From a virus (taxonomy: Duplodnaviria > Heunggongvirae > Uroviricota > Caudoviricetes), in IMG/VR virus record IMGVR_UViG_2737471846_000015: a stretch of 4,606 nt of DNA. The stretch is one strand, 5' to 3'. Made by a program: the position numbers. Numbering within the stretch: the first letter of the stretch is position 1; the number at the start of each line of letters is the position of its first letter. This document shows, piece by piece, positions 1-3,000 of the stretch.

Positions 1-3000
1 CAATTCAATGCCGTCAAGAGATTACAGGCTAAAAAAACTCTATTACATAGCAGCCAGCATGTTTACCGTACAAGTACAACTCAGGGCATAAAAAAACCCA
101 CTCGGCAGCGGGTTTATACATTTTTTACAACATACCAAATTTGCATGAAGTATATGGCTTTTAATCCAGTTTTGCAATATTTTGCTGTAAAAATGCTGCC
201 TTTTGTTTTGAACGTGTTCTCGTCACAAGCAATAAAGCATCACTATCAAGCTGTAGAAAAATGTGCTTCATTGCAACCCAGCGTTCAGTAAATGTCTCGG
301 ACCAGTTTTTTGTTGTCACTCCCACCAATGATGCCAGTGTCTGGTATTCATAGGCCTCACGCCCTGCAAGTTCGCTCTTCACATCCTGTGCAGCCAGCCA
401 GATTAACGTCTTCAGGCGATCCAGTGTCTTACCTGCAATTTTTCTGTTACTTAACAAATCTTTAAACTCGCTCCATGCCCATTGCGTTATGGTGACCTGA
501 TGCCCCCATCGAACGCTTTCGCTGTAACACTAAAGCAACCATGCTTTCTGATGTTCATCGAGAGACAAAACCGCGCGGCGCCATGAAGAGGTTGAGAATT
601 CAACCGGGCTGACCAAAGCAATGGATGAACCTTTTGCGTACGACTGCTTACCGGAAGTCGGCGTATTATCCAGCGTAATCATCTTGCCAGTTACCACATC
701 CAGAATGCGCGGCTTCTTTCGTTTGTATGTACCAGTATCAAATTGTGCATGCTCCAGCCAGGCTTCGAGCTGGCCTTTCGTTGCTCCGTTCAAGTCAGCA
801 GTAGCTGCCATAAGTTGCTCACGAACATACTGTAAATATTGGGTATTCATGCAGTAAATCCTTTCTATATTTTGGCATAATTCTTCAACATTCGGTAATC
901 GTTCAAAACCGAATCGGGGAAACGACATAAGCACAGGAGCCCCCAGCGACAGCGAAGGAGTTCTGATATATAAGACTCAGACATCATTCATTCCCCGGTT
1001 CTCCAAAATCTGTTTCACTCATCATCCATAACTACCTGTAATTGCCCCCCCTTTTTTTGTAACAGTTCTTATATTGCTATATAGAATAGCCATTACTAAT
1101 GCATTTAAATCCAATAAAATAAAAATTATAAAAACATAAAACACCACGCAAACACACTTAATAAAACACCGTTACATTAAAAGATAATAAAAACCACAAT
1201 AAAAAACGAATAAATCAATTATCTCACGCAATTATAAAACATCATATTGATTACGCACCTTGTATTACAAACTCATGTATGTAAAATACGCGCACCATTC
1301 AAAAAAAAGGAAGACAATAACATATGAAAAAAAGTGTCATCGCTGGCGTCTTTATTGCTCTGTCATTTACCACGTGTTCAGCTATCGCGAACAGCCTTGC
1401 ATTATCATTAGCAAATGATGATGCAGGGAAGTTTCAACCAATACTTAATGATATTTATGGCAATAAACATGAAAACAGAGATGATTACTCACAAGGCTTA
1501 TTTCTGGGATATAGCCACGATATCTCAGACTCGAGCCAATTATCTCTCCATATTGCGCAAGATATTTACTCTCCATCAGGCAGTAATAAAAGACACAACA
1601 CAGCTGTAACTGGAGACAGAGCTTTTAGTGCATACACTCACACTGGTATTGAATGGAACTCCCTTGCGAATGACTGGATTCGCTATCGATTAGGTACTGA
1701 CATAGGTGTTGTTGGCCCCGACGCAGGCGGTCAGAAAGTACAAAATAAAGCTCATGAGATTATTGGGGCAGAAAAATATCATGCATGGGATGATCAAATA
1801 GAGAATCGCTACGGTTATACTGTAAAAGGGATGCTATCCATGACACCAAGTATGGATATTTTAGGTGCTAATGTTGGATTATACCCTGAAGTTTCTGCTG
1901 TTACTGGAAACTTATTTCAATATGTAGCATATGGCGCAACCATTGCCATTGGTAATGATAAAACCTTCAATTCGGATAATGGCTTTGGTCTGCTGGCTCC
2001 CCGTGGTTTAATGCATATGTCCGATACAAGCGGATTCAAATACAAGATTTTTGCAGGTATGGAAAGACGAGATGTCAATCGCAACTATACTCTCGAAGGA
2101 AAAACAATACAGACGAAACAAACAACAGTATCGCTAAACAAAACTGTTGATGAATATCAAGTTGGCGCAACAATTGGGTATGCACCTGTAGCCTTCACAC
2201 TAGCATTTAATAAAGTAACATCAGAATTCAAGACAGGGGATGACTATTCATTTATAAATGGAGCAATCACCTTCTTTTTTTAACTGAATTGAATTCAATC
2301 AAAATAACATAAGTCCAACAAAAACATAAAGTGCGAAATGAATGCCAGATCCATTTATTTCGCACTATAAAAGATTAAAGGTTGCAATAAAATAATAAAA
2401 TGACTCAGTTACGAAAACCAATAAACTGTGGCCAGTAGTGAGTCGCTCATCATCGGGCTTTTTGGCGAATGAAATTTAGCTACGCTTTCGAGTCTCATGC
2501 GCCTTCTCCCTGTACCTGAATCAATGTGAGGTTTCCGCAGAACACTGCGCCAGTATCGATATACATCTGGTTGGCAAATTTGAGTGGTTTCACTGCTGGC
2601 GTATGACCAAAGATGAACGTGTCCGCGCCTTTGATTTCTTTCACGATCCCGTCTTGTGAGTTGCTGATTCGTTCGCGGTTCCAGATTACCTGCTGATGAT
2701 CAACTGGCTTTCCAAACTCGTATTTATCACAAGGATAATCGGCGTGGCAGATGACATATTTTTTTCCTTTACTCACCAGTTCGATGATTAACGGAAGTTC
2801 ATCTGCTTTATGGGCAAGAGCTTTAGCCAGAATTTCTTTGTCGTAATCGAGATTAAAGAACCAGCCACCGCCATTAAGCAGCCAGTGATTGACGTTTCCA
2901 CGCTCTGATAAGCCATCAATCATCATTTGCTCATGGTTTCCACGTACAGCTCTGAACCAGGGGAATGTGATTAATTCCAGGCATTCTACGTTCTCTGTAC

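Follow-up and report, generated by a model that had tools for sequence, protein, structure and literature searches.

What does the open reading frame (ORF) in the late-regulator position of this prophage encode, and would its product work? The stretch of DNA analysed here (hereafter the window; 4,606 nucleotides of a Caudoviricetes genome, IMG/VR record IMGVR_UViG_2737471846_000015) carries on its minus strand an ORF of 134 codons that runs from GTG 934 to a stop codon at 530..532, with further ATG codons at 928 and 850. The original prediction assigned this ORF from gene order to the slot of the antiterminator Q, saw none of the features of lambda Q in it, and left open whether it belongs to a divergent or undescribed antiterminator family or is another kind of regulator. 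We find that window positions 161..850 (minus strand) are very likely a phage-82-type Q, the late-gene antiterminator of a lambdoid prophage, with a recent nonsense mutation that converted Trp107 from TGG to TAG. The gene is a pseudogene of the Q82 family and not a working member of it, and since that family is already known, it adds no new type of regulator.

Past the stop at 530..532, translation of the same frame stays open for another 122 codons, to a TAA at 161..163. A Pfam scan, which the original prediction had proposed for the antitermination families, gave a clear match to PF06323 (Phage_antiter_Q) on both sides of the stop. The 134-residue ORF matches profile positions 1-103 of 220 (E 2.6e-41, 142 bits), which shows it to be coding sequence and not a chance ORF, and the continuation at 529..164 matches profile positions 105-216 (E 3.5e-43, 148 bits). 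Joining the two parts by reading the stop as Trp raises the score to 308 bits and extends the match to profile positions 1-216 of 220; the gathering score of this family is 25 bits. The 134-codon ORF thus exists as described, while the limits given for the gene were wrong at both ends: its stop is a premature TAG, and its true start is ATG 850. The parts of the gene are as follows.

161..850, minus strand: Q82-family antiterminator pseudogene, 229 codons plus TAA at 161..163; identified by PF06323, by identity to the Q proteins of phages 434 and 82, and by RefSeq.
530..532, minus strand: premature amber TAG at codon 107, where a G-to-A change at window position 531 has altered TGG (Trp).
533..850, minus strand: N-terminal fragment, still translatable, 106 codons; by translation, equal to the 134-codon ORF minus a spurious 28-codon extension.
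164..529, minus strand: C-terminal 122 codons, untranslated, covering PF06323 profile positions 105-216 and a predicted helix-turn-helix (residues about 169-190).

Q proteins fall into three families that share no sequence similarity with one another: Q82 (PF06323), Q-lambda (PF03589) and Q21 (PF06530) (PMC9388147). In our Pfam scan neither PF03589 nor PF06530 had any match up to E 0.1, and no other antiterminator family was hit, in agreement with the original view that this is not a lambda-type or 21-type Q. The lack of a Cys-rich zinc-binding motif was also correctly seen: the whole 229-codon frame contains a single Cys codon. That lack is to be expected, as the Q82 family has no similarity to Q-lambda (PMC9388147). 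The assignment to the Q slot itself holds as well, the gene being an antiterminator gene by its PF06323 match; what the first reading could not make was the connection to 82-type Q.

Comparison with individual phages supports the same assignment. DNA searches matched phage 82 Q (X92588.1, 89.6%), phage 434 (OL657226.1, 99.0%) and 1198 complete E. coli genomes, and the matched E. coli records call the gene bacteriophage antitermination protein Q. The protein agrees at 227 of 229 positions with phage 434 Q (UMO75331.1, from OL657226.1), which is equivalent to the CP-933K Q of E. coli O157:H7 EDL933 (AAG55112.1). One of the two differences is the TAG that replaces TGG at codon 107, and the other is Leu for Gln at residue 32; the C-terminal half (164..529) has none. 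Phage 82 Q (CAA63332.1, from X92588.1), the founding member of the Q82 family, is of the same length, begins with the same residues MNTQYL, shares 203 of 229 residues (89%), and, like phage 434 Q, has TGG at codon 107. In contrast, lambda Q (PF03589; PDB 4MO1, 7UBN) and Pseudomonas AlpA (PDB 7XYA, 7XYB) show no detectable sequence similarity to the window protein, which also lacks a zinc finger.

The amber allele is rare. Of the 620 complete genomes with this region, only two, those of E. coli 2013C-4830 and 2012C-4227, contain the exact 61-mer centred on the TAG, and 601 contain its exact TGG version. Similarly, the exact truncated product of 106 residues is present in only 2 public contigs, compared with 672 for the intact CP-933K allele. 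Over its full 4606 bases the window shows 2 mismatches to 2013C-4830 and 2012C-4227 (99.96% identity), and 2012C-4227 is a strain of Shiga toxin-producing E. coli (STEC) O165:H25 (PMC4683243). In both genomes PGAP/RefSeq marks the gene as pseudo (“bacteriophage antitermination protein Q, internal stop”), and its pseudogene status is therefore already in the public annotation.

The original prediction had treated the start of the gene as ambiguous between GTG 934, ATG 928 and ATG 850, and had noted a 40-codon out-of-frame ORF overlapping its 5' end. All three start codons are present, and the ambiguity resolves in favour of ATG 850. Two features of the minus strand bear on this choice.

859..863, minus strand: Shine-Dalgarno sequence AAGGA, 8 nt upstream of ATG 850, read from the sequence.
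865..987, minus strand: ylcG-family small gene (orf45 of phage 82), 40 codons, out of frame with Q; NCBIfam NF033498; ends 14 nt before the Q start.

ATG 850 is the true start because homologues including phage 82 Q begin with MNTQYL, RefSeq uses this codon, the Shine-Dalgarno sequence lies 8 nt before it, the PF06323 match sets in at the fourth residue from this start, and overlap with ylcG, which ends at 865, is avoided. Starts at GTG 934 and ATG 928 would overlap ylcG and precede the Pfam match, and neither is used by RefSeq or the phage 82 record; the original EDL933 annotation did take the GTG start, giving 257 residues. The 28 codons from GTG 934 lie outside the gene. The 40-codon ORF is indeed present, as the known gene ylcG (E 7.4e-13, 48 bits against NF033498, cutoff 30), and with ATG 850 as the start its supposed overlap with Q falls away. 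It is annotated in RefSeq and also in phages 434 and 82; no Pfam model exists for this family, only the NCBIfam one.

What would the stop codon do to the protein? Across 59 aligned, diverse members of the family, W104 is near-invariant, position 107 is aromatic and Y109 is invariant, and the stop therefore falls inside the most conserved motif of the family. An AlphaFold model of the intact allele (mean predicted local distance difference test score, pLDDT, 86; predicted template-modelling score, pTM, 0.73) has a helical core, which extends from roughly residue 80 to the C terminus, and places the stop within helix 99-109, in the high-confidence core. Helices 169-176 and 180-228 of the model probably form a helix-turn-helix (HTH). 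The structure prediction that the original prediction had called for thus yields a likely C-terminal HTH, while its Foldseek neighbours are weak: the top three are AlpA, Q-lambda (7UBN) and again AlpA, with E-values of 0.09-0.3 and template-modelling (TM) scores below 0.5. The best structural neighbours of the model are therefore antiterminators, which would indicate resemblance only and not membership of their families. Such a resemblance to AlpA is already in the literature, where AlphaFold models of lambda Q and 82Q are described as resembling AlpA, the N-terminal segment forming a ring and the C-terminal HTH reading the DNA element (PMC9371919). Searched by sequence against the PDB, the repaired protein had no relative, the best hit (E 0.059) being an unrelated transporter; by this search the Q82 family has no solved structure detectable by sequence. 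The literature likewise records no experimental structure for the family, and its mechanism as unsettled (PMC9388147). With the conserved motif cut and the C-terminal HTH lost, along with half of the core, the 106-residue fragment would probably not be recruited to the Q-binding element (QBE), and it is predicted to be inactive.

The DNA on which an intact Q would act lies at the end of the gene and just beyond it.

149..177, minus strand: putative late promoter PR', overlapping the Q stop codon, from a promoter scan.
177..172, minus strand: PR' -35 element TTGCAA, from the promoter scan.
171..155, minus strand: 17-bp PR' spacer with the putative QBE, from alignment to the 82-like phage PhiR47_2.
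154..149, minus strand: PR' -10 element TATACT, from the promoter scan.
117..142, minus strand: initial transcribed region, with +1 placed at A142, the seventh base after the -10 element.
137..136 and 134..129, minus strand: putative sigma70-dependent pause element, TG plus TATGTT, at +6 to +14 (hexamer at +9 to +14).
118/117, minus strand: expected pause at +25/+26, with T at +25 (window 118).
90..115, minus strand: intrinsic terminator with a 9-bp stem, a GCCG loop and a run of seven Ts, from a terminator scan.

An intact Q of 229 residues, as in phage 434 and CP-933K, would be expected to act as described for phage 82 Q. It would bind the QBE between the -35 and -10 elements of PR', a promoter overlapping the end of its own gene, engage RNA polymerase while it is halted at the sigma70-dependent pause at +25, and travel with the polymerase, which would then pass the terminator, located about 53 nt downstream, and continue into the late genes. 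From the window allele, translation would end after 106 residues, inside the conserved core helix; no antitermination would be expected, and PR' transcripts should end at the terminator. For the remnant beside mlrA in this STEC O165:H25-like lineage, this would mean that the late-gene switch has been lost, with no late transcription from its own PR'.

Several points weigh against this picture of a dead gene. Both the Shine-Dalgarno sequence and ylcG are intact, and any transcription of the region would also yield the 106-residue fragment. The downstream half of the gene is undamaged, and at the level of sequence a little read-through, or suppression where the host carries a suppressor, is conceivable. 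We infer the inactivity of the fragment from its sequence and predicted fold. Finally, the window has GTA and not GCC at +15 to +17 of the PR' transcript (126..128, minus strand), and details of the pause may accordingly differ from those of phage 82; phage 434 has the same GTA.

The first of these points leads to the alternative that survives best, although we regard it as quite improbable: that the fragment is functional in its own right, for instance as an RNA polymerase-binding piece that modulates or blocks Q82-type antitermination of other prophages. It retains an undamaged start codon, Shine-Dalgarno sequence and set of N-terminal residues, and the N-terminal segment of Q-like proteins has been given RNA polymerase contacts, with a proposed ring at the RNA exit channel (PMC9371919). 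It is similarly doubtful, to the same degree, that a fragment bound near the RNA exit channel acts as a dominant negative against the Q82-type antiterminators of superinfecting or co-resident phages; were this so, the amber allele would be a domesticated anti-phage or prophage-silencing variant and not plain decay. Against such a role, the allele is present in only 2 of 620 genomes and so shows no sign of selection, the cut in a conserved, high-confidence core helix would probably destabilize the fold, and a protein lacking the HTH would not be recruited at the QBE. Moreover, the two TAG-bearing genomes contain no second near-identical copy of Q or PR'.

Slightly less probable still is that full-length Q continues to be made, by amber suppression or by programmed read-through of the TAG. 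The frame after the TAG is undamaged and identical to that of phage 434 Q, as this would require, but a recent mutation would leave the downstream half undamaged just as well, and the TAG is not conserved, unlike what would be expected of a programmed signal. No recoding signal or tRNA gene of this kind is known for Q genes, and in hosts lacking a suppressor the amber mutations of lambda Q behave classically as nulls.

An error of sequencing or assembly in a gene that is really intact has a comparably slim chance. The TAG is a single-base difference from the common allele, as an error might be, but two complete genomes that were assembled independently have the same base, as do the window and two more public contigs. 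Since two other bases set the window apart from both genomes, it constitutes a third independent reading of the allele, which makes an error unlikely. The weakest alternative, an undescribed antiterminator family or another regulator, is refuted: in its favour were the missing lambda-type and 21-type matches and the missing zinc motif, but the PF06323 match of the ORF alone is strong and specific, protein identity to the experimentally studied phage 82 Q is 89%, and RefSeq and the phage 434 record already call the gene Q, leaving this reading virtually no probability.

We therefore return to a Q82-type gene inactivated by a nonsense mutation, and to the condition of the DNA elements that it would have served. 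In phage 82 the QBE of PR' is located between the -35 and -10 elements (PMC4914094). To set the register of the window promoter, we applied the published text on 82 PR' (PMC5001585) to PhiR47_2 and then to the window. In the chosen register, PhiR47_2 has an extended -10-like element at +6 to +14, GCC at +15-17 and a T at +25, as described for 82 PR'. The window promoter aligns to PhiR47_2 without gaps and shares its -35 element TTGCAA, a near-identical spacer (15 of 17 bases in common), the pause element at +6 to +14 and the T at +25. The two differ in the pause hexamer, which is TATGTT in the window and TATTTT in PhiR47_2, and in the terminator, which is nearer in the window (about +53, compared with about +78). 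In 82 PR', the GCC element at +15-17 lengthens the half-life of the sigma-dependent pause (PMC5001585); with GTA at these positions, the late promoter of the 434/CP-933K type may pause less than the 82 model system, or differently.

A second candidate for the pause element, TGTATAAAC at 121..113, was rejected: it would begin at +22, which does not fit the published position of +9 to +14, and TG-g-TATGTT fits that position exactly.

Downstream, the hairpin and T-run at 115..90 confirm the terminator that had been placed near 90-115. The RNA hairpin has a predicted folding energy of -15.3 kcal/mol (z -2.9), the same element is annotated as a terminator in the phage 434 record, and an unmodified PR' transcript would be predicted to end there at about 53 nt. 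The cis-acting stretch equals that of phage 434, a viable phage, but for a single base and the T-run, which in the window has 7 Ts and not 8. Judged by its sequence, then, the DNA side of the switch (promoter, QBE spacer, pause element and terminator) appears intact and 82-like, and only the protein would have been lost.

On the plus strand, opposite to Q and overlapping the PR' -35 element, TTGCAATATTTTGC at 172..185 fits the CII-binding consensus TTGYN6TTGY. The phage 434 record labels this site as the CII site of the antisense promoter paQ. As a consensus match we did not retain it, since it is the sole match in the window and one is no more than chance would give (1.3 expected).

In the window, as in phages 434, 82 and PhiR47_2, Q sits in the slot that separates the nin region from the late (lysis) operon, with ylcG/orf45 directly upstream of it. 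The order that the original prediction used to place Q (nin genes, phosphatase, Q, terminator) is right, except that the phosphatase and Q are not adjacent, being separated by two further elements.

1324..2283, plus strand: lpxR, encoding lipid A deacylase (PF09982, E 6.8e-40), between the nin/phosphatase genes and ylcG-Q.
2439..2498, minus strand: relic of a lambda-type Q, its first 20 codons, directly after the phosphatase gene and overlapping its stop codon; the frame then diverges and stops.

The lambda-type relic, which is also annotated in phage 434 and in RefSeq, implies that a module of lpxR, ylcG and Q82 replaced a lambda-type Q by recombination. The whole neighbourhood is the same in phage 434, from the phosphatase through the lambda-Q relic, the opposite-strand lpxR, ylcG and Q to PR' and its terminator. 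Upstream, phage 82 differs: where the window has a lambda-type ninG, the phosphatase and lpxR, phage 82 has rusA.

Unlike phage 434, the window prophage is a remnant. It adjoins mlrA (yehV) and runs from a truncated integrase and IS3 through the nin genes and Q to two small genes, IS600, tail-fibre fragments and nleG7, having lost its lysis genes and most of its structural genes. A sister strain, E. coli 90-3040, carries the same remnant with Q intact and an internal stop in ninG (2795..3406 of its locus; window equivalent 3157..3768, minus strand), and in the window ninG is intact. The loss of different genes in the two lineages points to independent decay of the same remnant. Because the prophage was already heavily degraded, the loss of Q is ordinary prophage decay. 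Its significance beyond correct annotation is small, and a pseudogene adds nothing to the open question of the Q82 mechanism; the locus does illustrate how one nonsense mutation, if the sequence is read without tools, can give a well-known gene the look of a short ORF of unknown kind.

The gene lpxR is a host-modifying passenger in the early-late junction, and is present there in phage 434 too. Between the divergent lpxR and ylcG-Q lies a 335-bp AT-rich intergenic stretch (988..1323), which holds a promoter-like site (1270..1241, minus strand) and an unsupported 41-codon ORF (1022..1147). Early transcription must traverse lpxR in the antisense direction to reach Q.
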